Numbered from the stretch's first letter, positions 15,156-37,297 are shown. The stretch is 64,000 nt of DNA from Candidatus Levyibacteriota bacterium (GCA_963722305.1 CAVRKE010000001.1:76312-140311), one strand, 5' to 3'. The notes: a model not told the origin generated them from the letters alone. Translations and numbers: made by a program.

Positions 15156-16567
15156 ATAAAATAAAAACAATTCATTTCGTCGGAGTAAAAGGGGTAGGAA
15201 TGGCGCCTTTGGCGATTATTGCCAAGGAGGCGGGTTTTACGGTCTCCGGTTGCGATATTGATGAACAATTTATTACCGATGAGCCCTTAAAAAAAGCCGG
15301 AATAAAGCCTTTGGTTGGTTTTTCCGAGAAGCATCTTGAGAATTGTGATTTACTGATAACTACGGGAGCGCATGGGGGATTCAAAAATATTGAAGTAATT
15401 AAAGCTAAACAGTCCGGAATTCCTGTTTGGACTCAAGGACAAGCGGTCGGTGAATTTATGAAGGGCACAATTTTCAAAAAGGATTTTGAAGGAATTTCGG
15501 TGGCAGGTTGTCACGGAAAAACCACTACCACGGCAATGATCGCCACGATTTTACAAGAAAACAGATTGGACCCGTCGTTTGTAATTGGGACAGGCAATAT
15601 TCCATCGCTTGGGTCTTGCGGACACTTTGGCAAAGGCAATTTCTTTGTGGCCGAGGCAGACGAATATGCCACGGAGCCGGTCTTTGATAAAACACCGAAA
15701 TTCTTGTGGCAAAAGCCCAAAATCGGCGTTATTACCAATATCGAATTTGACCACCCGGATTTATATCCGTCAATGATAGAACTTCGGAAAGCTTTTTTGG
15801 ATTTTGCCAACGGCATCCAAAGTCAGGGATGTCTGGTCGCCTGCGCGGATGACCCGGATACAACCACAATGCTTAAAGATTTCAGCAACAAAGTGATTAC
15901 CTACGGTTTCTCTAAAAATGCTAACTTTTATATAGATAAGCTAAGTTTAGAGCCGGAAAGGGTATTTTTTTGGGTGAATGCCAAAAGTACATCCTTGGGG
16001 GAGTTCTCCTTAAACATTCCGGGTAAGCATAATGCCTTAAACGCCTTAGCGGCAATAGTCACTTGTCTTGAGTTGGGAATTTCCATAGACAAGATAAAAA
16101 AGGGACTATTGGCATTCAAGGGAACAAAAAGAAGGTTGGAATTTATTGGCAATCTTCCTTCTGGCGCAACGCTTTACGACGATTATGCTCATCATCCAAC
16201 CGAAATAAGGAAGACCTTGGAAACAATTAGAATTTCTCATCCGAACAAAAAAATTGTTTGTATTTTTCAGCCTCATACTTACTCAAGAACAAAAAGTTTG
16301 TTCGAACAATTTATACATTCATTTAGTGCAGCTGACGTTGTTATCATAATGGATATATTTGCTTCTTCCAGAGAAAATATTGATATGTCAGTTTCATCGA
16401 AGATGTTGGTAAAGGAAATTGCAAAAATTCATCACAGCGTTTTGTATATCCCAAAAGCTGAGGATGTGGTAAAATATGTCGACCAAAATAACTTTGGCAA
16501 AGATTATATCTTGTTAACTATGGGAGCCGGCGATGTTTATAAAATAGCAAAACAATTATTAAAATAA
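15152..16567 (+). CDS. murC: UDP-N-acetylmuramate--L-alanine ligase
   Basis: 'IHFVGVKGVGMAPLAIIAKEAGFTVSGCD' MurC N-terminal Rossmann. 'GCHGKTTTTAMI', 'TNIEFDHPD'. Confidence 0.85.
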   Translation: MNKIKTIHFVGVKGVGMAPLAIIAKEAGFTVSGCDIDEQFITDEPLKKAGIKPLVGFSEKHLENCDLLITTGAHGGFKNIEVIKAKQSGIPVWTQGQAVGEFMKGTIFKKDFEGISVAGCHGKTTTTAMIATILQENRLDPSFVIGTGNIPSLGSCGHFGKGNFFVAEADEYATEPVFDKTPKFLWQKPKIGVITNIEFDHPDLYPSMIELRKAFLDFANGIQSQGCLVACADDPDTTTMLKDFSNKVITYGFSKNANFYIDKLSLEPERVFFWVNAKSTSLGEFSLNIPGKHNALNALAAIVTCLELGISIDKIKKGLLAFKGTKRRLEFIGNLPSGATLYDDYAHHPTEIRKTLETIRISHPNKKIVCIFQPHTYSRTKSLFEQFIHSFSAADVVIIMDIFASSRENIDMSVSSKMLVKEIAKIHHSVLYIPKAEDVVKYVDQNNFGKDYILLTMGAGDVYKIAKQLLK

Positions 16568-16570
16568 GTT

Positions 16571-17899
16571 ATGGATAAGTTTGTTATAAAGGGAGAGAAA
16601 AAATTAAAGGGTGAAGTTTCAATCTTTGGCTCAAAAAATACTGCCTTGAAAATTTTAGTGGCTGCTTGCTTAACTAAAGAAGAGGTAAGGGTTGAAAATG
16701 TTCCGCTTATTTCGGATTTTATGACCATGGCGGATATTATAATTCACTTAGGCGGAAAAGTTGATTTCAAAGGCCATACAGTTTCGATTAGGTTTGAAAA
16801 ATTTTTAAGCGAAAAAATATCTCTGGATAAAGCGGCAGAAATTAGAACCTCTTACATGTTTTTAACGCCTTTGTTGGCAAGAGTCGGAAGGGCGGTTATT
16901 CCAAATCCCGGCGGTTGCAGAATTGGCGCAAGGCCAATCGACAGGATTGTTGACGGGCTTCAGAAAATGGGAGTGAGAATTCAATATTCAAGTAGAGACG
17001 GTTACTTTCACGCCGATGCCCCAAAGGGTTTAGTCGGAACAAACTACAGGTTTATTAAAAATACCCATACCGGTACGGAAACAATGATTCTAGCCGCAGT
17101 GCTTGCCAGAGGAAAAACTACCTTAGAAAATGCGGCACAGGAGCCTGAGATTGATGAATTGATAAGCTTTTTAAATCAAATGGGGGCAAAAATTGTCAGA
17201 ACAAAGGCTAGAACAATTGTGGTTAACGGAGTTGAGAGACTGCACGGAACTAAATTTAGAATAGGACCCGATAGAAACGAAATTGTCACTTTTGCGATTG
17301 CGGCGGTAATTACGGAAGGAGAGGTCTTTATAAAAGATATCAACAGGCATGGATTGGAAGATTTTTTGGTTGTTTTAAAAAAAGCTAATGGGGGATTTAC
17401 AGAAAAAGAAAACGGAATCAGCTTTTTTTACAAAGGTCGTTTAAGAGCGATTGACGTTACCACTTCATTCTATCCGGGGTTTATGACTGATTGGCAGGGA
17501 CCTTTGGCAGTTTTGCTGACAAAGGCAGACGGTGTTTCGACCATTCACGAAACAGTTTACGAAAATCGGTTTACTTATGTAGACGAGTTAAAAAAAATGG
17601 GTGCGGAGATAGAATTGTATAACCCAGTCCTTAAAGATCCTGAAAAAATCTATAACTTTAATATTAAAGACGATAATAAACATTTCTTTCATGCAGAAAG
17701 AATTGTTGGTCCGACCAAACTTCACGATGCGGTGTTGGACATTACCGACTTAAGAGCGGGCGCAACGCTTGTTTTGGCAGCTCTGGCTGCCAGCGGCGAG
17801 AGCGTTTTATTTGGGATAGAGCATTTAGATAGAGGATACGAGCAATTCGAAAAAAGGCTTAAAAATTTGGGAGCAAAAATTTCAAGAGTAACGGAATAG
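16571..17899 (+). CDS. murA: UDP-N-acetylglucosamine 1-carboxyvinyltransferase
   Basis: 'FVIKGEKKLKGEVSIFGSKNTALKIL' EPT-fold N-terminus. Conserved Cys region 'NPGGCRIGARPID'. Confidence 0.9.
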   Translation: MDKFVIKGEKKLKGEVSIFGSKNTALKILVAACLTKEEVRVENVPLISDFMTMADIIIHLGGKVDFKGHTVSIRFEKFLSEKISLDKAAEIRTSYMFLTPLLARVGRAVIPNPGGCRIGARPIDRIVDGLQKMGVRIQYSSRDGYFHADAPKGLVGTNYRFIKNTHTGTETMILAAVLARGKTTLENAAQEPEIDELISFLNQMGAKIVRTKARTIVVNGVERLHGTKFRIGPDRNEIVTFAIAAVITEGEVFIKDINRHGLEDFLVVLKKANGGFTEKENGISFFYKGRLRAIDVTTSFYPGFMTDWQGPLAVLLTKADGVSTIHETVYENRFTYVDELKKMGAEIELYNPVLKDPEKIYNFNIKDDNKHFFHAERIVGPTKLHDAVLDITDLRAGATLVLAALAASGESVLFGIEHLDRGYEQFEKRLKNLGAKISRVTE

Positions 17900-17949: not shown

Positions 17950-19200
17950 ATGCAAGCATTGCTTTTAGCAGCCGGTCAATCTTCGCGGATGTATCCGTTT
18001 TCAAACGGGATGCATAAATCCATGATTAAAATTCTTGGTAAACCTTTGTTGCAGCACACGCTAGAAAAACTTAAGCAGAAAAATGTAACAGAGATTATTA
18101 TTGTGGTTAATAAAGATAAGACAATCGAGTCGTATTTTGGAGACGGAAAAAAGTTTGGAGTTTCGATAACTTATGTTTTGCAGGAAGAGCCCCAAGGGGC
18201 AGGGAATGCAATTCTTTTAGCGAAAAAACAAATTAAGGAGGATTTTTTGTTGCTTAATTCTTACCACGTCGAAATTAATAAATTTATTGACCGGCTGGTC
18301 TTGGCAAAAACCCAAGCCAGTGATGGCGTTTTGCTAGTCAAACAAAAAGAAAATGCTTGGGATTATGGAGTTGTAAAAGTAGAGAATAACAGAGTGAGTG
18401 GGATTATCGAAAAACCCCAGAAGGGGAATGAACCGTCAAAGCTTTGTATAGTCGGCATTTATCTTCTTCCGTTAAAATTTATTGCGACACTTGAAAAAAT
18501 ACCTCAGGAGCATTATCAACTGGAAGCTGCACTTGATGCCTACGTAAAGGACCATAACGTTTGTTTTGTTGAAAGCAGCGAAGAGACGGTAGTTTTAAAA
18601 TATCCATGGGATTTGCTCAATGTCAAAAACTATTTATTATCTAATCTAAAGAAATATACGGCTGAGAATGCCCAGATTGCCTCTTCGGCTGAAATTATCG
18701 GAGAAGTCTACATTGATGAAAACGCCAAAATAATGGAAAATGCCGTCATTAAAGGGCCGTGTTTTATAGGCAAGGATGTGTTTATTGGGAACAGCGCTAT
18801 TTTAAGAGACGGAATCGATATGGAAAATAATTCTGTAGTCGGTGCCAATATGGAGGTTAAAAATGCCCTGATTATGGAAAATTCGAAAACACATTCCGGA
18901 TTTTTGGGAGATTCGGTTATCGGCAGTGGTTGTCGGATAGGAGCCGGTTTTTGCACGGCCAACTTAAGAATAGACCGCGCAACGGTTAAAACAACAGCTA
19001 ATGATAAAAAAATAGATACGGGGTTAAAAAGCTTGGGGGTAATGATTGGCAACGATACCCGTATTGGCGTAAAAGTCTCGACCATGCCCGGCATAATTAT
19101 TGGCAGCAATGTTTCCGTTGGTCCGGCAACGACTGTTTTGCATAATATTGCCGACGGAAAAAAATATTACACAAAATTCGCAGAAATTGTGCAGGAGTAG
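17950..19200 (+). CDS. Sugar-1-phosphate nucleotidyltransferase with C-terminal left-handed beta-helix acetyltransferase domain (GlmU-like)
   Basis: 'LLAAGQSSRMYPFSNGMHKSMIKILGKPLL' NTP-transferase motif plus hexapeptide repeats (IGNSAIL, VGANMEV, IGSGCRIGAG). The position beside murA suggests UDP-GlcNAc synthesis. Confidence 0.55.
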   Translation: MQALLLAAGQSSRMYPFSNGMHKSMIKILGKPLLQHTLEKLKQKNVTEIIIVVNKDKTIESYFGDGKKFGVSITYVLQEEPQGAGNAILLAKKQIKEDFLLLNSYHVEINKFIDRLVLAKTQASDGVLLVKQKENAWDYGVVKVENNRVSGIIEKPQKGNEPSKLCIVGIYLLPLKFIATLEKIPQEHYQLEAALDAYVKDHNVCFVESSEETVVLKYPWDLLNVKNYLLSNLKKYTAENAQIASSAEIIGEVYIDENAKIMENAVIKGPCFIGKDVFIGNSAILRDGIDMENNSVVGANMEVKNALIMENSKTHSGFLGDSVIGSGCRIGAGFCTANLRIDRATVKTTANDKKIDTGLKSLGVMIGNDTRIGVKVSTMPGIIIGSNVSVGPATTVLHNIADGKKYYTKFAEIVQE

Positions 19201-25295: not shown

Positions 25296-26432
25296 ATGTT
25301 AATAAAACCGCAAACAGCTAATTTCGCCAAGATAAGAGTAATGGGAATTGGCGGAGGCGGAACAAACGCCCTCAACTCGATGATTACCCAAAGCAGTATT
25401 GTCGGGGTTGATTTTATTGCCGTTAACACCGATGCGCAAAGTCTGCTTTTAAATCAAGCGGCCACCAAGCTACAGATTGGTGAGGACCTAACCAAGGGCT
25501 TAGGTTCCGGTGGTAACGCCGAAATCGGCAAACAGGCGGCAGAAGAATCTTACGAGAAAATCAGAGAAATGTTGGACGGGACGGACATGCTTTTTTTGAC
25601 CGCCGGAATGGGTGGCGGAACAGGGACGGGGGCCACTCCGATTATTGCCAAAGCCGCTAAAGAAGTTGGTGCATTAACCGTAGCAGTGGTTACCAAGCCG
25701 TTTGCTTTTGAGGGCACAAGAAGAATGGTTACCGCCGAAGACGGAATAGAAGAACTGAAAGATAAAGTTGATACCCTAATTGTCATTCCTAACCAAAGAA
25801 TTTTGGATGTCGTTGATAAAAAACTTTCACTGTTGGAAGCTTTTAAAGTGGCGGATTCGGTTTTGACTCAGGGAGTGCAGGGTATTTCCGATTTAATTAC
25901 CCTACCCGGCCTTATTAACGTTGATTTTGCCGATGTCAAAACGATTATGCAAAATGCCGGTTCGGCTTTAATGGGTATTGGTACGGGCGTTGGGGAAAAT
26001 AGGGCGCAGACTGCCGCCAGAGTAGCGGTTTCGTCTCCTCTTTTGGAAATTTCGATGACCGGAGCAAGAGGGGTACTGTTTAATATTATCGGCGGCCCGG
26101 ATTTAACCATGAGTGAAGTTGACGAAGCGGCCAAGATTATTGCTGCCGAAGCCGACCCGGATGCCAATATTATTTTTGGTGCCACCATTGACGACACCAT
26201 GCATGACCAAATGAAAATTACGGTGATTGCCACCGGTTTTGATTCAACCAGGCAAACCCTTAAGGAATTTATGACTCCAACCATCAATCGCGTCATGGAA
26301 CAAAGCCAGCAGCCGAGTCAATCCGGCCAGCCAAAAATAAATGAGCCGGAGCCGCCAATACCAACCGAAGCGCCGGTTGAAGAAGAAGACGACACGTGGG
26401 ATATCCCCGCATTCCTCAGAAACAGGAACTAG
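25296..26432 (+). CDS. ftsZ: Cell division GTPase FtsZ
   Basis: Tubulin signature '[35 protein letters not shown]'. Conserved C-terminal peptide '[10 protein letters not shown]'. Confidence 0.95.
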
Positions 26433-26457
26433 GGATTTTAGCTTCAGATTTTTATTA

Positions 26458-26482
26458 TAGCACCTAACAGGGTGCTTTTTTA
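26458..26482 (+). terminator. Rho-independent terminator after ftsZ
   Basis: GCACC-taaca-GGTGC followed by T6. Confidence 0.6.
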
Positions 26483-26484
26483 AT

Positions 26485-26498
26485 GGATGTGAGAAGTC
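26485..26498 (+). repeat. 14-bp direct repeat GGATGTGAGAAGTC (copy 1 of 2). Copy 2 at 27596-27609.
   Basis: Exact 14-mer present twice, flanking the integrase gene. Copy 2 lies inside the 5' end of the int ORF. Confidence 0.5.
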
Positions 26499-26544
26499 AA
26501 TTAGGGGAGTAGCTTGTGGTTTGAAAGTGAGGGTTTAGAAAAAT

Positions 26545-27630
26545 CTAAGCCCTTACGAATGAAATCGCAATCTTTAATCCTGTATCGTCTTCTGAAACTG
26601 AGTATTTAAATCTACTGTCAGTTTCTAAATGTAAGTTTTCAAAGTTTTCCTTAACTGATTTGATAATTTCTTTTGTGTCAACATTTTTTCTAATCAATGG
26701 ATTTCGCATAGCTGCCCTTTGTAGGGTTTTGTCTGCAAGATGCATGTAATTATCGTAGGTTGTTTGTATGTCCTTATGCCCTAAGAGAACAGCGACCTCT
26801 GTAATTGGAACCCCTACTTCAAGTAAGTGAGTTGCAAAGCTATGTCTGAAATTGTGAGGGAAAACTCTTTTAGTAACCCCTGCTGTTTTAGCCCTTCTTT
26901 TCAAATCTGAGGAAAAGTCTTGTGCGTTAACTTGATGATTTTTAGCATTTAGAAAAATTAAATCGTCTTCGTTCTTATTCTTGCAAAGCTCTTTTAACCT
27001 ACTAGCTAATGGTTCTGTAAAATATACTGTTCTATTCTCGTTTGTTTTAGTTTCTGTAATTCTAGCTTTGCCATCCCAATCAATGTTTTTAACCTTTAAA
27101 TTAGTTGCTTCAGAGAATCTACAACCGGTATATGCGAGAAACATCGTAAGCGATCCATATCTAAAGTCTAAAAATGAACAATCTATTCCCTCCAATTTGC
27201 CATGAGTTAGAGGGGTGCTTAAGATTGTTTCTATTTCCTCGTTTGTAAAGATTATAATTTCAGCTTTCGTTTTTTTAAATGATTTAAACCCATCAAGGAA
27301 ATCAAAGGGTAGTCCTCGGTCTTTGTAACAATCAACAAGTTGTCTAAATACAAAATAATAAGTGTTAAGAGAATTATTGCCAAGTCCCCTCTGTTTTAAC
27401 TCCATAAAATACCGTTCTACGTTTTCCTTTGTTAGACCTTTATCTCTAAACGAGTGATTTATTCTTCTGAAACGGATTCTACAGTGACGTACGCTTTGAT
27501 CGGCTAAGTTCTTTTTAATTGTGATAAAAGAAATAAAATCTTCTTCAGCTATTTGCATACTCTCTTTTGGAGAGTAGCCTGTGGAAGGAAATTGAGGATG
27601 TGAGAAGTCTGTATTTATATTAGTCTGCAT
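26545..27630 (-). CDS. int: Tyrosine-type site-specific recombinase/integrase
   Basis: C-terminal catalytic motif '...HNFRHSFATHLLEVGVPITEVAVLLGHKDIQTTYDNYMHLA' (R...HxxR...Y). N-terminal SAM-like core-binding domain. Confidence 0.9.
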   Translation of the reverse strand: MQTNINTDFSHPQFPSTGYSPKESMQIAEEDFISFITIKKNLADQSVRHCRIRFRRINHSFRDKGLTKENVERYFMELKQRGLGNNSLNTYYFVFRQLVDCYKDRGLPFDFLDGFKSFKKTKAEIIIFTNEEIETILSTPLTHGKLEGIDCSFLDFRYGSLTMFLAYTGCRFSEATNLKVKNIDWDGKARITETKTNENRTVYFTEPLASRLKELCKNKNEDDLIFLNAKNHQVNAQDFSSDLKRRAKTAGVTKRVFPHNFRHSFATHLLEVGVPITEVAVLLGHKDIQTTYDNYMHLADKTLQRAAMRNPLIRKNVDTKEIIKSVKENFENLHLETDSRFKYSVSEDDTGLKIAISFVRA

Positions 27631-27825
27631 AATTCAAAAAATCAAGAACCATATATCCTACCCATAGGCTTTGGATAGTTATATCTACCACTAGCTTCGT
27701 TAAATGGCATAATAACGTCAAATTTGCCTATCATAAAAACTTGTCTGGGTTTCGCCCCTTACTCTTTATAGACACCCTTTTTATATTGTACAAAATCTCA
27801 ACTGTAAAAAATGTGTTAGGAAATT

Positions 27826-28006
27826 TTAAAATGCCTTTTTATAAAAACTTTGTATTTTTATTTGTTTTCTTTGCCAATTGGTATAGGGTTTTAATAAACA
27901 AATTTTTTCATCGGGAAACCATGTTATTTTCTTTCTCCAATCTTTATCGTCGTATCCTTTTGTATCAGAGCAGATTGGTGCTTCGCATTTTAAGAAATGT
28001 TTCATT
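27826..28006 (-). CDS. Small hypothetical protein (59 aa, CxxxC-containing). Not in the ORF track because it is under 60 aa.
   Basis: Own six-frame reading: MKHFLKCEAPICSDTKGYDDKDWRKKITWFPDEKICLLKPYTNWQRKQIKIQSFYKKAF*. The overlapping + ORF 27741-28118 is AT-rich and low-complexity, so likely spurious. Confidence 0.25.
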
Positions 28007-28254
28007 TAATAATTCACCTCCTTGCGAGCTTTGTAATAGTATCCATTTAACGTTGTATGGTTATAATGTCTTTTCTTATATTCTTAGAGGCGTTCTTGTT
28101 GTGCTGTTTTATACTTAATTATTACAGTAAAGTAGGCAGCTTTTGTTTTAGTGATAATTCCTTTTTCAAAAGCTTCTATGGTTATTTTCAGACAATTTCT
28201 AAGGAGATCCGCTCTACGTTCTCGAGCAATCTTGCTATACCATGCAAGATTTAC

Positions 28255-28449
28255 TTAGTCATCAAGAGCGATTGCTAAGTGGTAAGGAATGTCATCTTTA
28301 TTTTGGGGAAAGTCATCGATTCCAAATTTGTAGTTATCTAAACATACTACCTTTCCTTTAACATAAGAACCTTCCGTTTCAGCTAAAGATTCAGCTATTT
28401 CCCTTTTTTCAAATTCTGTAAGGCTGCTTTGTTTACTTGCTTCGTCCAT
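28255..28449 (-). CDS. Small acidic hypothetical protein of the element
   Basis: ORF overlapping the zinc-ribbon ORF by 17 nt (operon-like). The reading frame appears to continue past its TAA stop into 28120-28254 ('VNLAWYSKIARERRADLLRNCLKITIEAFEKG...'). Confidence 0.3.
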   Translation of the reverse strand: MDEASKQSSLTEFEKREIAESLAETEGSYVKGKVVCLDNYKFGIDDFPQNKDDIPYHLAIALDD

Positions 28450-28642
28450 ATCCTTTCTCTCTTTCTTTCTCAGTGGGAATTAAAATAAATCCTTTTCCAT
28501 CGCAAGCATGACAAGTAACATGTTGGTATGAAACTGTTCCCCAGCCATTACAAACGGGACATTTCTGAGCGAGATATTCTGGTTTTAATTCTGTTTGTAT
28601 TATTTCTGTCATTTTATCTTCAAAAAAAAGATACAACCACAA
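28433..28642 (-). CDS. Small zinc-ribbon protein
   Basis: CPVC...(16)...CHAC spacing. Probable start at the internal MTEIIQTEL. Confidence 0.4.
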   Translation of the reverse strand: MWLYLFFEDKMTEIIQTELKPEYLAQKCPVCNGWGTVSYQHVTCHACDGKGFILIPTEKEREKGYGRSK

Positions 28643-28775
28643 CGGAGGCTGTATCTCTGTTATATGATTCTAAATATTATTCTAGTAGATAAAAGCTAAT
28701 AGTCAACCGCCTATAGTATAAATTGCATTTACATCAAAAATATAGTTTTGTCTATCGTGGTTAAATATTATTTCT

Positions 28776-28935
28776 TCTCGTGTCGGAAAACTAGTTTTTT
28801 TATTAGTGTCCAATAATTATTTTTATAGTAGTCGGAAAACTACCACTTAATAGTGTGTAAAAACTAGTGTCTAAAGTGTCAAAAAACTAGTTATTTTATC
28901 GTTCTGGAAAACTAGTTTTTTTATTGCGTCGAAAA
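28776..28935. repeat. Iteron-like array: at least 5 direct copies of a GGAAAACTAG(T)TTTTTTAT-type motif
   Basis: gtcGGAAAACTAGTTTTTTTATtagtgtc (28783), gtcGGAAAACTAccactt (28831), AAAACTAGTgtc (28860), gtcAAAAAACTAGTTATTTTATcgt (28878), ctGGAAAACTAGTTTTTTTATtgcgtc (28905), in an AT-rich intergenic region. Confidence 0.5.
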
Positions 28936-29062
28936 ATTAATATTTACGGCCTAAAAATGGTTAGCTAACAGAGTACCACCCTATAAATAATATATCTGTT
29001 AAATTAAAATGGGTGGTACCCTATATCCCGAAAAAGAATGCTTTTTATAGAGAGGTTAACTA

Positions 29063-29665
29063 CTAATTACCACAATTCTTGAGGCCTTCTTCCATTTGAT
29101 TATGACAATCATTGTCACAGGATAACATGTTTGCCGTAGAAGCGTTGTAGCATTGCTCAACGGCACTCGAATTATATGTATTAGGATACATGGACGAATT
29201 ATAACCGTAAGTTGATTGGCAATTATTGCTATCAGTTTGAGCGTTTGCCACACAAAGATTGACACAAGCAGTTTGAGCTGCATTAACCCCGTTATTACAT
29301 ATTAAAATTGAACTATCTTTAGCGTATTGGGCAGTTCCTTGGGAATATTGCTGTAGAGTTTGTTGTAGGGGTGATTGAGCCGATGTAGATTTTCACCATG
29401 CGTTATTAAAATTATCACATTCCTGCTGAGTAACCTGTAAATGCTTACCATCTGGGCCAATACAATCAATAGTATTTGTAGCTGGCTGTTGATAGGTTTG
29501 TTGAGGCATTTGTGTGGGCGTGGGTGCTTCAGTTGAAGTATCGGGTTGGGCTAAAGTTGGTTGAGTTGCATTATTTCCCAGTACTCCTAGAATAATATTA
29601 CCACATAAAAAGGCAAGTATAATGAAAATACACATACCAAAAACGATAATTGCATTACGTGTCAA
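29063..29665 (-). pseudogene. Secreted Cys/Gln/Asn-rich protein gene interrupted by an in-frame TGA
   Basis: ORFs 29393-29665 (signal-anchor + TPT/Q-rich) and 29063-29251 (Cys-rich) are in the same frame, separated only by TGA (revcomp of 29393-29395). The intervening 141 nt reads through as KSTSAQSPYQQTLQQYSQGTAQYAKDSSILICNNGVNAAQTACVNLCV... Confidence 0.4.
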
Positions 29666-29723
29666 TTTGTTATTCCCCTCCGTTATCTTTTCTTCAGGTT
29701 TTAAATTCTTTTTCTTTTCATAT

Positions 29724-30038
29724 TTATTGCCCCCACCTATGTAGGCACTCTGTATAATCTTGATTTACTAAACGTTGATTATATGCAACTCTCTTGTCAG
29801 ATTCTTTTACGATTTTTTCTCTTGTTTGTTCTAAATTTGCAGGTAAACCATATGCAGAATAAATGCCTGCGTTATTCATGTTGTTAATAACGATTGTGGC
29901 CTCTTCGTCAGTGAGTGAAACATCAAGCTTGTGAGATTCATTTTCGCAATACATTTTTGCAATCGGGGGTCTAATAAAAATAAATCCGACTAAAATAACT
30001 ATTGCAATTATCAATATAACTCTCAATAGCTTATTCAT
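29724..30038 (-). CDS. Small membrane-anchored hypothetical protein
   Basis: N-terminal TM 'LLRVILIIAIVILVGFIFI'. First gene of a minus-strand small-protein operon. Confidence 0.4.
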   Translation of the reverse strand: MNKLLRVILIIAIVILVGFIFIRPPIAKMYCENESHKLDVSLTDEEATIVINNMNNAGIYSAYGLPANLEQTREKIVKESDKRVAYNQRLVNQDYTECLHRWGQ

Positions 30039-30463
30039 ACAAAAAGCTCTCCGCCAGCGATGACTTACGTCACCTGCTACCTTTCGGATAACAACCTTGT
30101 AGGATGCTCTGACGAAGAGCTTACTTCCTACAAGGGTTTTCTGCTATGCCAATTACTTGGTTTAGGCAATTAATGTTAGTATAGCATACTAAAATCCGTA
30201 AAATTACTTTCGCAGCTAATTAAATTGAGGCTATATAGTGTCTAATAATATTGAAAATAGAAATTTTAATAGTATAATTATTTTTAGAGACTTTATGTGA
30301 TGGGCAAAATCCGTAAGGTCTCTATTGTTTTGGAATAATGAAAAATCTCCTAAAAATATAACCTAGAGTAAATCAATTAGCCTCAAAACAATTTAAGGAT
30401 AGGGGATTTAGCCTCAAACGGACGTCGCAATATATACATTGTGCGACGCAATAAGATAAAATC

Positions 30464-30492
30464 TTGACATACAGTGTAAAAATTGGTATATT
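30464..30492 (+). promoter_or_regulatory. Near-consensus sigma70 promoter TTGACA-17-TATATT with no protein-coding gene downstream
   Basis: -35 at 30464-30469, -10 at 30487-30492. About 20 nt downstream is a weak hairpin (CC-UUCG-GG) plus T-run (30513-30540). Transcription would run antisense into the NYN remnant. Confidence 0.4.
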
Positions 30493-30602
30493 ACGAATAA
30501 TCTTTCGAAATTGGTGCCTTCGGGTGGCTTTTTCATTTTATAGAGTAGTGTTGGAATAAAGAAGTAAGATCTAATAGCTTAATGTCCTTATTGTTTAGCT
30601 CT

Positions 30603-31130
30603 TTAATCTAGTAGAAGTTCTGCAAATTTTTCTGGGCTTGGTGGATTAGTTAAAGGGGCATAAACTGTAACTTTTTTGAGTATTTTAGATGCAACGTATT
30701 CATATACACTTCCAAAATCTCCGTCTGAGAAAACTATTATCTCATCATATTTCTCTCGAATACTATGATTCATAATTTCTAAGGTCATATCCACGTCACA
30801 ATTTGCCTTAGATTTGAAACCTCGTTTTAGGTATTCTATAAACTGTTCCCACATTTTTTACATTTAACTTAAATTCTAGGGGCTTTTGATGATATATAGC
30901 AACTTCCTTCTGTTTTATTACATAACCTAATTTCTAGCTCTACGAATCTATCCTTCTTGACTGTGTCTCCTTTTGGTATGACAACAAAAATAAATATCCT
31001 TTTAGCTCCCAAAGTGTTTGTAAACCAAGAATAAGCTTTTTCATAGTTAAAATCCTTAAACGCGTAATCTCGAAAGAATTTCTTAAATTCTCTGCATCAA
31101 TGTATACAAATAATTTCATATTAATAATTT
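30603..31130 (-). pseudogene. NYN/LabA-like (DUF88) nuclease-domain gene broken by at least two frameshifts
   Basis: Three consecutive frames read MKLFVYIDAENLRNSF | DYAFKDFNYEKAYSWFTNTLGAKRIFIFVVIPKGDTVKKDRFVELEIRLCNKTEG... | MWEQFIEYLK...DVDMTLEIMNHS...IIVFSDGDFGSVYEYVASK. Together they form a typical NYN domain. Confidence 0.5.
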
Positions 31131-31278
31131 CTTTATTTCCAATTCAGGATAAATTTGGCTATCTATGTTGCAATTAGGTTAAGTAAAATTCCAATTAGAA
31201 CTGTTCCAAACAAAAAAACAATTAATTTACCAAGCAGATTTTTTGGGTAACTAATGTTTTAGAATGAAATTTAAAACT

Positions 31279-31476
31279 CTACATGTTTGCGAGTTTTATT
31301 AGAGAGCTCAAGTTGTTTAGTACAGTTTTATATGATTTGCTGCTTGAAGCTGTTTTTGTTGTATTGGTTTCAAGGATGCGTTTTGATATTGAGCTTTTTG
31401 AAGTATGTATATGAAGGTTAACTTTGAATAACTTCTTTCTAAGCTCTTCATCGCTTAGCTTTTCTAATTCATGAAT
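31279..31476 (-). pseudogene. PHP-domain (polymerase/histidinol-phosphatase) N-terminal remnant
   Basis: Open frame without a start codon: IHELEKLSDEELRKKLFKVNLHIHTSKSS... ('LHIHT' PHP signature). A short MIVNLQHS* lies in another frame upstream. Confidence 0.3.
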
Positions 31477-31812
31477 GCTGTAAATTCACGATCATCTATA
31501 AAACAATCTATTCCTTAATCTCTGTTATTGTTTCAATATTAGATTCTGTTATCTTGGTAGCTTTTTGGCCTCTTATTGGTAGTATTTTATAGTGCTTACT
31601 TTGTATCATAATTCGAAGATGTGTTTCATTTTCTGCTTCTATTCTACATTGCAAATCTTTCTTTAATTGTATTAAAAATGTTTTCACAGCAGAACAATTA
31701 TACATCAATATAAACATAGATTTGTATTTATTTTCTGCAGATGGTAGAATACTCTTCCTGTTGACATTATCTGCTCAAATAAGATATTCTATAATTAGTT
31801 AACGGTTTATAT

Positions 31813-32132
31813 ATGTCTGAATCAGCTTCTATAAAAGCAATTGAATTAGCAAGAAGAGTCTTTGAACACGTTCACGGAAATATTGGGTTATTGAAATTTA
31901 ACGTAGAAGAACTCACTCCTACGAATGGAACAGCCACGAAGAATCAAAAAAATGGGATATTGTCTGCAGTTTTTATGAAACCTTAGGGAATGTAGCACCA
32001 TCTAGATATAAAGTTTCTGTTGATTTAAATACAAATTCAGTAACATTTAAAAAAATTTCAGGTCTCTCTGAGGGCACAGTAAAAGATACTGGCTCTTTTA
32101 AAGTTGTAGAATCTAAGAAAGAACAAGTTTAA
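31813..32132 (+). pseudogene. Small hypothetical gene split by a frameshift at an A7 run
   Basis: MSESASIKAIELARRVFEHVHGNIGLLKFNVEELTPTNGTATKNQKNGIL... stops at 31986. Frame +1 continues WDIVCSFYETLGNVAPSRYKVSVDLNTNSVTFKKISGLSEGTVKDTGSFKVVESKKEQV* from the A7 tract at about 31949-31955. Confidence 0.3.
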
Positions 32133-32139
32133 GCATTAA

Positions 32140-32683
32140 ATGTTTTTGAATCTTCAAATTCACGACTACGACAAACACATTTTTCCATATATAAAAAATG
32201 GTATTCTAATCGACACAAGTGTGTTTAAAATTATTGTAGACGGAATAGTTACTTCTAGAATATCAAAAAGAAAAGCTTACGATTTTGAAGAGATTTTGGA
32301 ATTTTTAGAATCTTATTAAAATGAATAATAGATGGGGCAAGTTTTGCATTACTCCTCATATTCTAACAGAGGTTTGTAATCATATAAGAAATGACTATAA
32401 CAGATGGAATAACTATAAAGAAATAATAAGTGAAATAATTCCTATATTATCTCAAATGGAAGATGCAATTATTAAAAAAGATGATGTTCTTAAATTAATT
32501 GACTTTAGAAATCCGATTGTAGAAATTGGAGATTTATCAATTTTTGTAGTTGCAGATGATTTTATAAATAGAAATGAAAAAATTGCAATTTTAGCAAACG
32601 ACAGCGAGCTAAATAAAAAATATAAAGATAACAATAATATATTGTTGTTAAATTATAAAGCCAACATGCTTAATCTTATTTAA
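32140..32683 (+). pseudogene. PIN-domain-like nuclease gene split in two frames (59-aa N-terminal piece + 120-aa piece)
   Basis: 32140-32319: MFLNLQIHDYDKHIFPYIKNGILIDTSVFKII... ('ILIDTSVF' resembles a PIN N-terminus). 32321-32683 starts in another frame 1 nt later ('KFCITPHILTEV...FVVADD'). Could instead be two small genes. Confidence 0.3.
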
Positions 32684-32772
32684 AAATATTGCATCTTGAC
32701 CCTCAATCTTAAACAGTCTATATTTTATTCAGGTGTTTTTTGTAGGAAATGAAGCTAGAAACAAGGGATTAC

Positions 32773-32808
32773 TTGGATATTCCCGCATTCTTAAGAAACC
32801 GCAATTAG
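32773..32808 (+). repeat. Duplicate of ftsZ 3'-end codons (attR-like), within the 19-codon mini-ORF 32749-32808 [19 protein letters not shown]
   Basis: 30/36 nt identical to 26397-26432. 'DYLDIPAFLR' is the canonical FtsZ C-terminal tail. Confidence 0.6.
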
Positions 32809-32870
32809 AGAAATGGGATTTCGTTGAGGCTCAACCCGCGTTTTTGCGAAAATTAATTTGACTTCTTAGT

Positions 32871-33326
32871 TTACAACTTGGGAAAGAGGACACTCTTTGC
32901 GTATTTTTCATATTTTTCCCCGAATTCTTTTCTCATTCTTTTTTCCTCTTCGGGTCTATAAATCCTTGTGGCGATGTAAAGAATAAGTCCAAATATTGGC
33001 CCCAGTAAGTTTCCAAGCAACAATCCAAGTCCGGGAAGCACCAACAGAGAAACTCCGGTATACAAAGGATGTTTCATAAGAGCATAAGGACCTTTCGTGA
33101 TAAGTTGTTTTTTGGGGACTTTTATCAGTATCAATATTTGGGACCAGAGACAAACAATCAGACCTAAAATTAGAAGAAGCAGGCCGAAGAAGTGTAAAAG
33201 ATTAGACTTCGGAATACTAAGAAGGGAGGGGAAAATAAAATACAAAATAAAGCCAAAGATAACAAACAGCAAAAAGACAGGACCGATTTTGTTTCCGCTC
33301 CCGGTCAAAAGCTTCAGCATTTTCAC
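32871..33326 (-). CDS. Isoprenylcysteine carboxyl methyltransferase (ICMT)/phospholipid methyltransferase family membrane protein
   Basis: 'GPYALMKHPLYTGVSLLVLPGLGLL...YRPEEEKRMRKEFGEKYEKYAKSV' matches the ICMT/PEMT C-terminal signature. 4-5 TM. Confidence 0.7.
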   Translation of the reverse strand: MKMLKLLTGSGNKIGPVFLLFVIFGFILYFIFPSLLSIPKSNLLHFFGLLLLILGLIVCLWSQILILIKVPKKQLITKGPYALMKHPLYTGVSLLVLPGLGLLLGNLLGPIFGLILYIATRIYRPEEEKRMRKEFGEKYEKYAKSVLFPKL

Positions 33327-33486
33327 AAGCTTAGTATAGCAAAGCCCATAACTAATGCGTAAAGCATTTCGCTTCGCTCAAGATTAAGCTTTTAGTTAAA
33401 CCCGTTGTTTAGTTTGTAGCTCATTAGTCAAACTTCTAAATCTTTTAGATTCTTGACACTAACTCGTTTTAGTGTATCATTTGGTA

Positions 33487-34044
33487 ATGAACGCAAAAAC
33501 AATTGTCAGTCTTTTTTTTCTCTATCTAATATTTTTTATTCTCGGAACACTACTTTATTTATTAACATTCAGAACTTTTCTGTTTAGCGGAATCTCAATT
33601 TTATTTTACCGGGGGATAGTTTTACTATTTTTTAGCTGCTTGATAATGCTTATTGTTCTAGTCGTTTATAAAAGAAGCAAATTCGGGCAAATTTTTACGT
33701 ACAGAGATATTCTTCTTTCCCTAGTTTTAATATTTTCTTTTAACATGGTGCTTTTGACAATTATGCCGGTGACTATTGAGCGCTCTATTTCGGTTTTTAT
33801 GCTTGGCTACATGAATAAAAATTCCAAAGTTACTTTTACAGAGCCGCAGATGTCGGTAATTTTTGAAAAAAAATATGTCCATGATTATAAACAGATTCAA
33901 GCACGGTTAAATGAGCAGTCTTATTCGGGAACGATTGTGCAAAAAAATGGCCAATATCAAATCACTAACAGAGGAAAATTATTTGTAAGATTGTTTTCGA
34001 TTATTGCTTATTTATTCAATGTTAATCCGCAACTAATTAAATAA
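33487..34044 (+). CDS. Hypothetical polytopic membrane protein with C-terminal soluble domain
   Basis: The track ORF starts at 33472, but promoter TTGACA(33452)-16-TATCAT(33474-33479) overlaps it. ATG 33487 (MNAKTIVSLFF...) would be the first codon of a leaderless transcript. Confidence 0.4.
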   Translation: MNAKTIVSLFFLYLIFFILGTLLYLLTFRTFLFSGISILFYRGIVLLFFSCLIMLIVLVVYKRSKFGQIFTYRDILLSLVLIFSFNMVLLTIMPVTIERSISVFMLGYMNKNSKVTFTEPQMSVIFEKKYVHDYKQIQARLNEQSYSGTIVQKNGQYQITNRGKLFVRLFSIIAYLFNVNPQLIK

Positions 34045-34053
34045 ATTAACTAA

Positions 34054-35643
34054 TTATATTTGGGGTGCGCGCAATAAATCAATCAACAGATTATAAATTT
34101 TTCTGGGTAGACTTTCCGGTCTGGGAACTATTTCATTTGGGACCATTACCGCTTTGCTTAATAGTGGTGGGGGAATGATTTGGTCTTGTTTTTGTTTTAA
34201 AAAGAATAGGTAGGCTCTGCCTGGGGGGGAATCGAAAGTTTTATATTTGTAACGGTTGGCTAAAAAGTTGACATCAAAATTGTTAAGGTTGCATTGTATA
34301 CAGCTAAAAAGATAAAAATTGCCATTCTTAAAACTTTGAATGTTGTTTGGAATTTCAATTTTGGCGTTTTGATAAAACACATATTGCAGTAAGTCCTGGT
34401 CTATATAATTTCCGGGATTTAGATATAAAGTATCGTAAGGGATAAAATATTTACTGGCAGATTTTGCCAGATTGTAGCGAAACAAGTTGGAAACGTTTTG
34501 TTCCGTTTTCCAATTTTCTATCCAAACGGCAAAGATTATCGAAAAAACAATCATCGCAGCGAATACCAATTTAGAATTAATAATTTTTCCCAAAACTAGC
34601 GTTGTACTGGAAAGTGCGATAAAGGGGACTAAGAAATAGATCCAAAAAGGATGTCCAAATGACCCTTCGGGAAATAGCATAATATTAGTTGCTCCGCAAG
34701 CAAAAAAAGCAAAAATCAAAAGATCAATGTCTTCAAGTTTTCTGTGCAAAACTTTTCCAAGAAACTTGAAAATATAAACAGCGCTGATTATTAAAAAAAG
34801 AGGATTAAAATATACAATAAAGCGAACCAGTAGTACTAACATCCAACGAATTTGCCATAAAGGTAAAGTGAGAAGTAAAGCGCCGGTGCTTCTATTTAAA
34901 ATTGCAGCAACTAAATTACTAAAACTGCCAAGAATAAAGTATGAATAGATTAGAAACAGCAAAGCAGTCAAGGTAGATGTCGCTATAAGAGTAAATCCGA
35001 GCCGGCCTTTTTTGTTTTTTAAAAACAATGGAAGAAGAAAAGGGGTAAAATAGGTCATTTGCCAATCGGATAAGGTCCCCAAAATTACCGAGATTACAGA
35101 CAGATAAAAATACTTTCTATCCCCGGTCCTAATTGCCTTTAAACTAAAGTAGGCAGTTAAAACTATGAATAATAAGCTCCAAGGTTGGTTAAAGGTAACG
35201 ATTCCCAATACAATGGCGGCCGGAATTAAACTAGAGATAAGCAGGGTCATCATTCCAAACCTTTTATTTTTTAAGTTCTTGCCGATAAAAAACAAAACAG
35301 GCAGAATTAAAAAAGCGGGAATTATTTTTGAAATTCTTCCCACCCAAAAATCATTCCCCAGTATTTTGAAAAAGATACTCTCAATAATTACAGGAAGAGA
35401 AGGGTGGTGTAGATAAAAATCGGGGTTTTTGGGTAACTGCTTAGACAAAGTTAAATCGGGGGCAAATTTCAAATTCAAATAGCCAAAGTTGTTAAAATTT
35501 CTTGCTGCTAAAGAGAGGACATTATAGTCGGTCGCATTAGGTCCAACAGGAGGTAGATTTAGGTATCTTGTCAACAAAAACAGAGCGAATAAAAGCGGAA
35601 GTATTATAAAGATATATTCCTTAAATTTTTTCTGCACAGGCAT
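34054..35643 (-). CDS. Large polytopic membrane protein, GT-C-fold glycosyltransferase-like (ArnT/PMT family-like)
   Basis: About 11 TM N-terminal region, then a C-terminal roughly 130-aa soluble domain. Architecture typical of GT39/GT83 enzymes. No strict motif verified. Confidence 0.45.
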   Translation of the reverse strand: MPVQKKFKEYIFIILPLLFALFLLTRYLNLPPVGPNATDYNVLSLAARNFNNFGYLNLKFAPDLTLSKQLPKNPDFYLHHPSLPVIIESIFFKILGNDFWVGRISKIIPAFLILPVLFFIGKNLKNKRFGMMTLLISSLIPAAIVLGIVTFNQPWSLLFIVLTAYFSLKAIRTGDRKYFYLSVISVILGTLSDWQMTYFTPFLLPLFLKNKKGRLGFTLIATSTLTALLFLIYSYFILGSFSNLVAAILNRSTGALLLTLPLWQIRWMLVLLVRFIVYFNPLFLIISAVYIFKFLGKVLHRKLEDIDLLIFAFFACGATNIMLFPEGSFGHPFWIYFLVPFIALSSTTLVLGKIINSKLVFAAMIVFSIIFAVWIENWKTEQNVSNLFRYNLAKSASKYFIPYDTLYLNPGNYIDQDLLQYVFYQNAKIEIPNNIQSFKNGNFYLFSCIQCNLNNFDVNFLANRYKYKTFDSPPGRAYLFFLKQKQDQIIPPPLLSKAVMVPNEIVPRPESLPRKIYNLLIDLLRAPQI

Positions 35644-35782
35644 ATTTTAGCAGTTTGAATTAATTAAACCAAGCGGAGATGTCCTAGGTATTTCCTTTGT
35701 TCTCCGCGACCGAAACTAAACTGCCACAGATAACTAAGCCTGGGCCGTTGTAAAAATTAAATAATTAAACGATAATATTGGT

Positions 35783-37297
35783 ATGCTTTTGAGTGGAAAG
35801 AAACTATTCTACAGCTTAAGCGTTGTCTTTATTTCCTTCTGTGTTTACCTTTCTTCGTATTTTGTCTTGAACGGTGAAGTGCATTTGACCAACGACGTCG
35901 GAAGAGATTTTTTACTTTTACAGGAATTGGATTTAAAAAAAATTGTTTTGATTGGCGCAAGAGCCAATACGCAAAACGTCTTTCATGGGCCGCTGTGGAC
36001 GTATCTAAATTACCCAGCCTATTTAATTGGACACGGAAACCCGGTAATTGTTGCCTGGTTTTGGATTTTGTTGGGAATATTTTTTCTCGTAACGACATTT
36101 TTGCTAATGCGTAAAATATTAGATACGACTTCCGCGCTGCTGGCTTGTTGTCTCCTAGCGGTAGGTTTAATCAGCCGATCAAACGAGATATTTGGGCAGT
36201 TAGCGCCTTTTTATGTGATGCCGTTTTTCCTTCTGACAATGTTTTCGTATATTAAGAATAAAAAATTTATTTTTCTCGTGGTGCATTTTTTGGCTTTGGG
36301 AATGCTTATCCAATTCAATGTTGGGGTCGGTGGGCTTTTTGCGTTGCTGTCTTTAATTTTAAGCGTAGTAGTAATTTATAAAAATAAACAGTGGAAGCAT
36401 TTGCTGGTGCTGTTTGTTTTACCGATGACACTTATAAACTTTATCGTCTTCGACTTACGTCACCAGCTGAAAATGACTAAAGCCTTGTTAAGTATCGGCA
36501 CGTCTCACGCCTTCTTAACGTATAGCGAATGGGTGAGCGATAGAATTGGTAATTTAATTACGATGCAAATACGCTCAGCTAACGGAATTCTTATTCCTTT
36601 GATTATTTTTTTCTTGGTAATGTTCTTTACCTGGTTGGAAATAAAAAATAGCAGTAAACAAAAATTATTTTTTTTAATACTCATCTTCTATTATTTCGGT
36701 TACATGTTACTTAGTTTTTCCAACAAAGGTTTAATGCTAATTGATCACGTCTACCTGTTGGTGCCGTTGTCGGTAATGTGGCTAGCAGCGCTTGCAAAAG
36801 GAAAATATAAATATGTGTTCATCGCTCTTATATTAATACTGATTTTGGTAAATCTTGTTTATGCCGTTAATTATTTGGTTAAAGCTAAGGAACAGTTTAT
36901 CGGCAAATCGCCTGATTCGTGGGTGGCTTTAGAAACAGTGGCCAAGAGAGTGATTGCTGAGCAAAAAGGCCACGCATTTGGTTATTTTGTCTATTCACCA
37001 GATGCTTTTGCTTATCAACAGCGCTATGCCATGCTTTACGCCTTTTCCAGCGCTCGGGCAAAAAGTTTTGAATACGTAAAAAAGGATATAACTTATGTGA
37101 TTGCCGCTCCGCATCCGCAAAACAATCCCTACATGAACGAAGATTGGTGGATTAAAAATGCTGTCAGGATTTCTAATTCTCCCACAGAAAAGTTATTGTT
37201 CCCAAGCGGATATAAAATAGAAAAATTTAATTTGACAGCGGCTGAACAAAAAATTTCTTTCGACCAAAATATTGAGTTGAAACTAACTTTCAGGTAA
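35783..37297 (+). CDS. Large polytopic membrane protein, GT-C-like (paralogous architecture to 34054-35643)
   Basis: Divergently transcribed from the previous gene. About 11 TM plus a C-terminal soluble domain. Confidence 0.4.
   Translation: MLLSGKKLFYSLSVVFISFCVYLSSYFVLNGEVHLTNDVGRDFLLLQELDLKKIVLIGARANTQNVFHGPLWTYLNYPAYLIGHGNPVIVAWFWILLGIFFLVTTFLLMRKILDTTSALLACCLLAVGLISRSNEIFGQLAPFYVMPFFLLTMFSYIKNKKFIFLVVHFLALGMLIQFNVGVGGLFALLSLILSVVVIYKNKQWKHLLVLFVLPMTLINFIVFDLRHQLKMTKALLSIGTSHAFLTYSEWVSDRIGNLITMQIRSANGILIPLIIFFLVMFFTWLEIKNSSKQKLFFLILIFYYFGYMLLSFSNKGLMLIDHVYLLVPLSVMWLAALAKGKYKYVFIALILILILVNLVYAVNYLVKAKEQFIGKSPDSWVALETVAKRVIAEQKGHAFGYFVYSPDAFAYQQRYAMLYAFSSARAKSFEYVKKDITYVIAAPHPQNNPYMNEDWWIKNAVRISNSPTEKLLFPSGYKIEKFNLTAAEQKISFDQNIELKLTFR

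Follow-up and report, generated by a model that had tools for sequence, protein, structure and literature searches.

Here we analyse a 64,000-nt stretch of DNA from a Candidatus Levyibacteriota bacterium (GCA_963722305.1, CAVRKE010000001.1:76312-140311; "the window", with positions counted from its first letter), and we consider it very probable that the interval from ~26415 to ~32790 is an integrated genetic island of a Microgenomates family that targets the last 8-12 codons of ftsZ. The results establish direct copies of the ftsZ tail, an integrase at the junction, conserved arms beside the copies, presence and absence of family members at the site, and an FtsZ protein that is unchanged. In the window, the 3' end of ftsZ is directly repeated at both junctions, the gene is intact, and an integrase gene lies inside. 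An integrative element at the ftsZ tail had been proposed in an earlier reading made from the DNA sequence alone (the sequence-only reading), and comparative evidence supports that proposal at the level of the family.

The ftsZ tail is present twice in the window

The FtsZ encoded in the window is identical to protein P0121, for which the Pfam domains Tubulin and FtsZ_C are recorded. The last 12 codons of its gene (copy 1: TGG GAT ATC CCC GCA TTC CTC AGA AAC AGG AAC TAG) recur downstream as a second 36-mer in the same orientation (copy 2: TTG GAT ATT CCC GCA TTC TTA AGA AAC CGC AAT TAG). The copies are identical at 29 of 36 nt, and six of the seven differences are synonymous; the remaining one, a TGG-to-TTG change at the start of the 12 codons, is non-synonymous and replaces W by L. 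The sequence-only reading thus had the positions and the six synonymous changes right, but its count of 30/36 identical nt, with every difference synonymous, has to be amended. Similarity is lost abruptly on either side of the 36-mer in both copies, and the only long exact block common to the two is CCCGCATTC (26406-26414 and 32782-32790). The runner-up match to the 36-mer, on both strands of the 64-kb window, is 21/36, and in 200 block shuffles the best 36-mer match never rose above 25/36. We conclude that the tail repeat is beyond chance. Copy 2 forms the end of a 19-codon open reading frame (ORF; 32749-32808) that is preceded by stop codons, and a third tail copy, which the sequence-only reading did not mention, follows it at a short distance (Table 1).

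The 6.3 kb between the copies have a G+C content of 32%, vs. 47.6% for ftsZ and 41.5% for the upstream division-gene cluster, in keeping with the AT-rich interior described earlier. The tyrosine recombinase that the sequence-only reading placed 110 bp past the ftsZ stop begins its ORF after a gap of 112 nt, and is confirmed by a match to Pfam Phage_integrase (PF00589; 2.8e-38; profile positions 4-170 of 172) together with a match to a PHROG integrase (5.7e-50). The protein aligns to IntI4, XerC-like, XerA and XerD proteins through RHSFATH and LGH...Y motifs, and its alignment with IntI4 and the XerC-like protein spans TGCRFSE, the beta-hairpin Lys region, HNFRHSFATH and LLGHKDIQTTYDNYMH. To judge from these alignments, from which the roles of the catalytic residues are predicted, it is a bona fide tyrosine recombinase.

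Occupied and empty sites in related genomes

Evidence for replacement of the ftsZ end comes from two related ftsZ loci, L096 (contig Ga0182011_10001762) and L005 (DATKGY010000051.1), which show 1 mismatch in 11,100 nt of the division cluster. The remaining 123 nt of L096 match L005 positions 17700-17822 at 100% identity. Between the two alignments there is an 11-nt overlap, GACATTCCCGC, and the indel amounts to 6,610 bp. The alignments indicate that L005 carries a 6,610-bp insertion; this insertion holds an integrase (63% identical), and its breakpoint lies inside the D-I-P-A codons of the tail. Over the last 602 nt of ftsZ, the two loci show 9 differences, 8 of them in the last 22 nt, and the translation of the tail is the same. 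We conclude that the element replaces the end of ftsZ by a synonymous copy and that the native end becomes the orphan at the far side, as the sequence-only reading, which had the insertion supply a synonymous ftsZ end, had predicted.

For the window itself, the corresponding comparison is with its nearest relative among the loci, L085 (FtsZ 96% identical), in which ftsZ is uninterrupted and a homolog of the window sequence from 32809 onward directly follows the ftsZ stop. The arrangement is the one that the sequence-only reading had proposed to look for in a relative, and it is seen here at genus level only. The L085 gene ends aac cgt aat TAG GGAGAAACGGGATTTCGTT, with a flank that includes GAAACGGGATTTCGTT; window copy 2 ends aac cgc aat TAG AGAAATGGGATTTCGTT, and copy 1 ends aac agg aac TAG GGATTTTAGCTTCAG. 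The last codons and flank of copy 2 thus resemble the native end in L085, unlike those of copy 1. This comparison identifies the sequence past 32808 as the ancestral ftsZ flank. It suggests that the native end was displaced into the right part of copy 2, and that the right part of copy 1 and the sequence from 26433 onward are element DNA.

The element family recurs at the 3' end of ftsZ

The relatives of its FtsZ place the organism in Candidatus Levyibacteriota (Microgenomates, Patescibacteria). We fetched 160 ftsZ loci (FtsZ 66-96% identical; designated L with a number) with up to 10 kb per side, 141 of which are distinct at 98% identity. Integrase homologs (36-73% identical) lie no more than 2.5 kb 3' of ftsZ in 15 of the 141 distinct Levybacteria loci. 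With a strict tail copy defined as PAFLRxxN followed by a stop codon, 46 loci with extra copies were first listed; L066 and L075 were removed from the count, the FtsZ alignment being truncated and the "extra" copy being the locus's own tail, which leaves 55 extra copies in 44 of the 141 loci. All 55 are downstream of ftsZ and on its strand; a search of about 0.95 and 0.89 Mb gave no strict tail copy either upstream of ftsZ or on the opposite strand. In integrase-bearing Levybacteria loci of sufficient length, a distal copy is present 5.6-7.8 kb from ftsZ (window, 6.4 kb; L005, 6.6 kb; L035, 5.6 kb; L037, 6.0 kb; L079, 6.5 kb; L122, 5.6 kb; L131, 7.7 kb; L025, 7.8 kb), with the exception of L032, which extends for 6 kb only.

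The association holds when the integrase, rather than ftsZ, is the starting point. A protein database contains 362 homologs of the window integrase at E<=1e-20, and in six of the six whose genomic context was looked up (P0002, the closest at 71% identity; P0005; P0077; P0084; one from Gottesmanbacteria; and one from Curtissbacteria) the gene lies directly 3' of ftsZ. Where the looked-up locus is long enough, an orphan tail is present 5.7-9.4 kb away and bears that host's own tail variant: IPAFLRQRS in Gottesmanbacteria, IPTFLRQIR in Curtissbacteria, and IPAFLRQRN and PAFLRQKN among others, each followed by a stop codon. The suggestion that homologs of this integrase be sought beside ftsZ 3' ends was therefore well placed, both in the Levybacteria loci and in the six look-ups.

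The integrases of these loci fall into two classes, one of 336-343 amino acids (aa) and co-directional with ftsZ (L005, L010, L037, L264, L268, L272, L274), the other of 355-369 aa and convergent with ftsZ (window, L025, L032, L035, L079, L122, L131, L276, L277). Tandem arrays and remnants are common; in L025, a 0.7-kb island with a Doc gene is followed by an integrase element.

Conserved arms flank the tail copies

For the arms of the attachment (att) sites, we use P' for the one adjoining the ftsZ stop and P for the one preceding the distal copy. In integrase-bearing loci of the window's type, the P' arm consists of a few bases, the motif TAGCTTCA or AAAGCTAC, ~15-20 nt, and a hairpin of the form AGCACC-loop-GGTGC followed by a T-run; L264, L268 and L274 have no obvious hairpin, and loci without integrase have unrelated sequence at the P' position. 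The P arm upstream of distal copies consists of ACTTAAAAAG, ~14 nt, AGGTGYTTTTAGTA, and then TGAAGCTAGAAA ~20 nt before the core. A profile of the P' arm gives 21 matches over all loci, 20 of which abut a tail copy; a profile of the P arm gives 46 matches, all on the ftsZ strand and downstream of the gene, with 32 abutting a strict tail copy. The motifs TGAAGCTA and TAGCTTCA are inverted partners that flank the core, and AGGTGYTTTTT is a direct repeat that occurs in both arms. The layout is as would be expected of a complex attP with accessory binding sites. No arms in the family score better than those of the window (3e-15 and 3e-12), whose P' region closely resembles that of L276 as far as the integrase stop.

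Additional arm-like elements were seen in several loci. Within the L005 insertion, a second P arm (16381-16462), whose core ends after CCCGCAT, leads into promoter-like sequence and a 382-aa ORF, and the unit absent from L096 therefore gives the impression of two elements fused together. Downstream of ftsZ in L046, 8.3 kb (8628-16979) contain five P arms, of which the first alone abuts an intact tail copy; the series looks like a long tandem array of element remnants. In L094, 7.6 kb downstream of ftsZ, an inverted P arm is joined to DIPAFLRQ without a stop (~18710-18782, minus strand), and this copy is the sole one in the opposite orientation. A module of ~110 nt, comprising CTTATAGT.., TTAGCCTCAAA twice, and a hairpin GTCGYA-N10-12-TGCGAC, recurs in ftsZ-linked islands (window; L005, ~15130-15240; L007, ~11650-11770; L131, two copies; L037; L079; L025; L057; others), stands directly 3' of a tail copy in L016, L107, L024 and L067, and has a TAGCYTCA motif in common with the att arms. 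The module of the window (30362-30447) may be a second arm type, an internal junction, or the join of two fused elements.

A model for exchange at the ftsZ tail

According to the model that we propose, the attP of the circular element would have a P arm with AGGTGYTTTTT and TGAAGCTA motifs, a centre that is a synonymous mimic of DIPAFLRxxN plus stop codon, and a P' arm made up of TAGCTTCA and an AGCACC...GGTGCTTTTTT terminator. Strand exchange would occur in the block around ATYCCCGC. After integration, the last 5-7 codons of ftsZ, its stop codon and a new terminator would be read from the element, and the far junction would retain the original ftsZ end as an orphan.

In the window, by analogy with L005/L096, exchange would have taken place in CCCGCATTC, which overlaps the L005-mapped block GACATTCCCGC. 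The ftsZ codons after CCCGCATTC (CTC AGA AAC AGG AAC TAG) and the terminator would come from the element, and the right part of copy 2 (TTA AGA AAC CGC AAT TAG) would be the displaced original end. The W-to-L difference lies to the left of the exchange block, in the untranslated P arm, and is irrelevant to FtsZ. The predicted attB junction of the window is ...GACGACACGTGGGATATCCCCGCATTCTTAAGAAACCGCAATTAGAGAAATGGGATTTCG..., and the predicted attP junction is ...GAAACAAGGGATTACTTGGATATTCCCGCATTCCTCAGAAACAGGAACTAGGGATTTTAGCTTCAG... An earlier candidate, crossover in the 7-bp spacer of an ATTCCT-N7-AGGAAT inverted repeat (in FLRQRN), was dropped, since the L005/L096 pair puts the crossover in GACATTCCCGC.

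Several observations weigh against the interpretation of the interval as an integrated island, or limit what can be said of the window. FtsZ searches of genome, metagenome and protein collections yielded no same-species genome and hence no same-species empty site, the best nucleotide identity of the window to any fetched locus being ~77%; the insertion in the window itself is therefore deduced from relatives rather than observed. Look-ups of the exact FtsZ and integrase proteins gave no strain variants either, and the identical FtsZ is confined to the source contig. No excised circle or free attP was found, and the window integrase has no relative in IMG/VR. Copies 1 and 2 have identical blocks of just 6 and 9 nt, and the precise point of crossover in the window cannot be located. 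The orientation of the integrase relative to the att site differs between members; both orientations occur beside the same junction, which implies that the history of the family includes an internal inversion, turning the gene around with respect to the att site. The accessory genes of the closest elements have left no trace in the window element, a search for remnants giving nothing below E = 0.07. Finally, short tail doublets in genomes that lack the integrase (described below) are unexplained by simple integration and excision. In related searches, 103 IMG/VR matches to a degenerate attP pattern were rejected as chance, none encoding PAFLR, and the integrases in an annotated phage collection were all below 30% identity.

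Other explanations of the repeat

The repeat could have arisen by local duplication or gene conversion of the ftsZ 3' end, with an integrase island landing between the copies or in an intergenic hotspot. The doublets speak for such an origin, inasmuch as they exist with no integrase nearby and tail copies are thus possible without a complete element. However, the arms abutting copies 1 and 2 are element-specific and co-occur with the integrase, and in L005/L096 the breakpoint lies inside the tail codons, not past the stop, with replaced codons that are all synonymous. We regard local duplication as highly unlikely.

A second proposal would make the orphan a functional gene of the element, encoding a 19-residue mimic of the FtsZ C-terminal peptide that competes for FtsA and interferes with host division. 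The ORF that holds copy 2 of the window does have an ATG, L035 and L131 show comparable open frames, and DYLDIPAFLR resembles the canonical FtsZ tail of E. coli. But the ATG belongs to the conserved TGAAGCTA arm motif; the D codon is immediately preceded by a stop in L005 and L006; in L046 the frame leading out of the arm motif does not coincide with that of the tail; and many orphan copies are shortened to PAFLRxxN plus stop. The copy moreover always has the host's own tail variant, including RQRS and PTFLRQIR, the L005/L096 copy is the native ftsZ end (100% identical over 123 nt), and no conserved ribosome-binding site and start codon are seen across the family. By the pattern of these frames, the orphan copies are not genes, which agrees with the sequence-only reading in treating the second copy as an orphan rather than part of a gene, and we hold a peptide mimic to be very improbable indeed.

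That the recombinase is a host Xer or phase-variation enzyme that switches ftsZ ends or regulates ftsZ, and is not mobile, is hardly credible: the closest solved structures are Xer-type and integron recombinases and homologs are labelled "XerD", but the cargo is wholly different between loci, presence is patchy (15/141 loci), the strain pair L005/L096 differs just by the whole 6.6-kb unit, recombination between direct repeats deletes rather than inverts, and, with both ends encoding the same peptide, nothing would vary. Dimer resolution of the Xer/dif type was considered separately and rejected on account of the patchy distribution, the varying cargo and the 6-kb units between direct repeats.

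Content and state of the window element

The features of the integrated island and its surroundings are listed in Table 1.

Table 1. Features of the ftsZ region and of the island in the window.
Feature	Position	Strand	Description
ftsZ	25296-26432	+	ORF with FtsZ translation; 3'-most gene of ftsW-murG-ftsQ-like-ftsA-ftsZ cluster
Copy 1 (putative attL core)	26397-26432	+	TGGGATATCCCCGCATTCCTCAGAAACAGGAACTAG; last 12 codons of ftsZ
P' arm	26433-26544	+	Adjoins ftsZ stop; conserved stretch reaches integrase stop codon
TAGCTTCA motif in P' arm	26439-26446	+	From arm comparison
Intrinsic terminator	26459-26481	+	AGCACC-TAAC-AGGGTGCT plus T-run; from terminator scan, also in RNA fold
Tyrosine integrase	26545-27630	-	361 aa; convergent with ftsZ
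CxxC zinc-ribbon small protein	28433-28642	-	Weak DnaJ_CXXCXGXG / Anti-TRAP matches, below Pfam cut-offs
Iteron-like repeats	~28780-28940	.	GTCGGAAAACTAG-type; 3 or more copies with an exact core, others degenerate; non-coding stretch
Two small ORFs	29393-30038	-	90 and 104 aa; hydrophobic N-termini; weak PHROG "membrane protein" match, E 0.004
LOOT RNA (Rfam RF03000)	30059-30168	-	Structured RNA carried as cargo; 69.2 bits vs. gathering score 46.4; full-length; in 560-nt non-coding stretch
Conserved module	30362-30447	+	TTAGCCTCAAA twice (30377, 30408), then hairpin GTCGCA-N12-TGCGAC (30424-30447)
NYN-domain gene	30603-31119	-	Apparently split into several short ORFs; decayed cargo
P arm	32707-32772	+	Kept upstream of distal copies in other loci
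P-arm motifs	32707-32716; 32731-32741; 32750-32757	+	TCTTAAACAG; AGGTGTTTTTT; TGAAGCTA; from arm comparison
Copy 2 (putative attR core, orphan)	32773-32808	+	TTGGATATTCCCGCATTCTTAAGAAACCGCAATTAG
Chromosomal flank (B')	32809-32861	+	Holds third, partial tail copy
Third tail copy	32835-32861	+	CCCGCGTTTTTGCGAAAATTAATTTGA; PAFLRKLI plus stop; partial and degenerate; 26 nt past orphan stop

Most ORFs of the window element are short and without a family match in Pfam or PHROGs; the two small ORFs have no Pfam matches, and the zinc-ribbon ORF is the sole cargo gene common to another element of the family (L122, 13342-13530). The iterons of the sequence-only reading are present as iteron-like GGAAAACTAG repeats, and its decayed genes are exemplified by the NYN-domain gene, which appears to be broken: ORF 30603-30854 covers just positions 69-126 of the 145-position NYN profile, and the short ORFs beside it sit in other frames and gave no matches. 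The LOOT RNA has no counterpart at the gathering threshold in seven related loci.

By its gene content, the window element is not a prophage: its 14 ORFs compared with Pfam, 10 of them also with PHROGs, include no virion structural, packaging or lysis genes, and 6.3 kb is below tailed-phage size. No relaxase, coupling protein or type IV secretion match was obtained with Pfam or PHROG (an oriT was not searched for), and conjugation genes are also absent from the precomputed annotations of the related islands examined. Among the features of phage satellites resembling phage-inducible chromosomal islands (PICIs), the window element has the integrase only.

In the closest elements, a module beside the integrase encodes a ribbon-helix-helix-like protein of 54-64 aa and a protein of 116-182 aa with YFxWK at its end; in most cases it includes a Cro/CI-type repressor as well. 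The sequence-only reading had described the window element as old and non-functional. The missing accessory genes and the decayed cargo agree with this description. The recombination parts look intact: the integrase is full length in comparison with homologs of 355-369 aa and has the catalytic residues, and the arms match the family consensus. "Decayed" is thus a fair description of the cargo, and the earlier description as a whole is half right. With accessory genes lost, a gene apparently broken and small ORFs unassigned, the element probably is a decaying resident and perhaps no longer excises itself.

Cargo differs from locus to locus in the family. It includes Doc, Zeta and PIN/Phd toxin systems, a KAP NTPase, TerB_N, an RnlA-like protein and a P63C protein and, judged from translations, TIR-like, nuclease-like and secreted SNase-like proteins; most of it looks like toxin-antitoxin or defence genes. 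Single phage-type genes occur as well: an HK97-type major capsid protein in L274 (11346-12035; 3.6e-45), a small-terminase N-domain in L277 (2753-3040; 1.4e-10) and, by eye only, a TerS-like ORF in L035 (13347-13724). The P63C-domain protein is in L122 (15439-16539). The family islands examined have no conjugation genes and no full virion module. We conclude that the family consists of small integrative islands. That some members might live as satellites is no more than a lead.

Tail doublets and codon usage at the ftsZ end

Doublets, in which a full FtsZ tail is followed by 25-60 nt of filler and a second PAFLRxxN plus stop (exactly the last 8 codons and the stop codon), stand directly after ftsZ in integrase-less genomes (L085, L003, L021, L022, L043, L042, L086, L087, L142 and others) and also mark the distal ends of elements, including the one in the window. 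Several filler types are kept between species, and in L086 and L081 arm-like sequence follows the second copy of the doublet. An RNA structure or terminator as the basis of the doublets was rejected (z-scores +0.4 to -1.7). The doublets may be what is left of elements that were almost entirely deleted, or they may be secondary sites of landing.

The codons of the tail are themselves distinctive. Of the 141 distinct loci, 127 (90%) use CCC for the Pro residue of the tail, vs. 11% CCC at the other Pro codons of ftsZ, and GAC, ATC, TTC and CTA are also enriched in the tail. The CCC bias is equal in loci without signs of an island (48/54). Either the elements chose a nucleotide-constrained site, or element traffic keeps the site uniform.

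The sequence beyond the island also varies. Window positions 32871-37297 encode an ICMT/PEMT-type methyltransferase and two PMT_2/EpsG-like membrane glycosyltransferases; homologs of these genes lie 3-8 kb downstream of ftsZ in L007 and L017, and not in the closest relatives. A homolog of the window sequence from 37327 onward follows ftsZ after 2.6 kb in L081. The differing positions of these post-island genes indicate that the whole region downstream of ftsZ is variable. In L023 (~2582), the ftsZ stop is TCG instead of TAG and FtsZ is extended by NSLQ; the near-identical L126 (~1352) keeps TAG. A glmS ribozyme upstream of ftsZ in L131 (7977-8163, plus strand) is unrelated to the island.

Discussion

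Integration at a gene end by an element that carries a spare end is textbook knowledge, with tRNA genes and icd as the examples. Insertion at a specific site within the final codons of a conserved housekeeping gene, with the gene not inactivated, is likewise seen for the staphylococcal cassette SCCmec, which inserts at the 3' end of rlmH (orfX) and uses serine recombinases (Ccr), and for streptococcal integrative elements at the 3' ends of rpsI, rplL and guaA; to our knowledge, none of these has been reported at ftsZ, and none has a Patescibacterium host. The FtsZ peptide encoded by the target docks FtsA and other division proteins in well-studied bacteria and is among the most conserved bacterial motifs.

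The closest precedent is that of e14 and phage 21. As described in PMC13626634 (citing Hill et al., 1989), an integrase element in the icd 3' end brings a substitute end, by which the host protein is kept functional, and leaves the icdC pseudogene at the far junction; synonymous changes clustered at the gene end are the icd signature. Duplicated blocks reach about 250 bp for targets like icd (PMC7192596), and integrative elements in general have an attP with a fragment of the target gene, an integrase beside the restored gene, direct repeats, and tandem arrays (PMC7192596). The elements at ftsZ share with e14 and phage 21 a tyrosine integrase acting in a gene 3' end, the substitute end, and the displaced end as a pseudogene. 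They differ in the target, in a duplicated block of about 27-36 nt, in an island of 5.6-9.4 kb compared with a prophage of at least 15 kb, in hosts from the candidate phyla radiation, and in a replacement that also brings a terminator. The same logic applies to islands that target tRNA or transfer-messenger RNA (tmRNA) genes, except that the target here is protein-coding sequence: the copy has to preserve the amino acids while its synonymous positions drift, so that the two copies are only about 80% identical. We conclude that the mechanism is of the kind known from e14 and phage 21 at icd, and that ftsZ is a new target gene. We found no literature report of ftsZ as an attB, and ftsZ is absent from the text and those supplements of the TIGER survey that were examined (the 2025 TIGER/Islander database was not queried).

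The family resembles PICI-like satellites in its size (5-9 kb), in the terminal position of the integrase and in having a Cro/CI-type repressor, and some members have a capsid or terminase gene. The window element differs from them in having no repressor, capsid or terminase genes, and the comparison identified no helper phage, primase/replicase or packaging signal.

In a broader and distinctly speculative reading, which we think has only a small chance of being correct, the ftsZ tail would be the standard landing pad of an undescribed Microgenomates mobilome, made up of small islands that transport toxin-antitoxin, defence and now and then capsid or terminase genes and that are perhaps phage satellites, with element traffic shaping ftsZ and the state of the element influencing expression and division. 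Marks of such traffic would be the CCC bias, the decoy partial copies downstream of ftsZ, and the swap of terminators at every insertion.

The islands described here are of practical interest too. Annotators should take orphan "DIPAFLR" mini-ORFs, and synonymous changes that cluster where ftsZ ends, for scars of junctions and not for genes or signals of selection, and a natural pair of integrase and attB could become a genetic tool. Because the tail motif is common to these hosts, a single integrase family has the same ~30-bp site at its disposal in at least three Microgenomates candidate phyla. The islands constitute the first well-delimited family of integrative elements for Microgenomates, uncultivated bacteria with small genomes whose mobile elements are poorly known, and the region downstream of ftsZ is a place to seek their accessory and defence genes.

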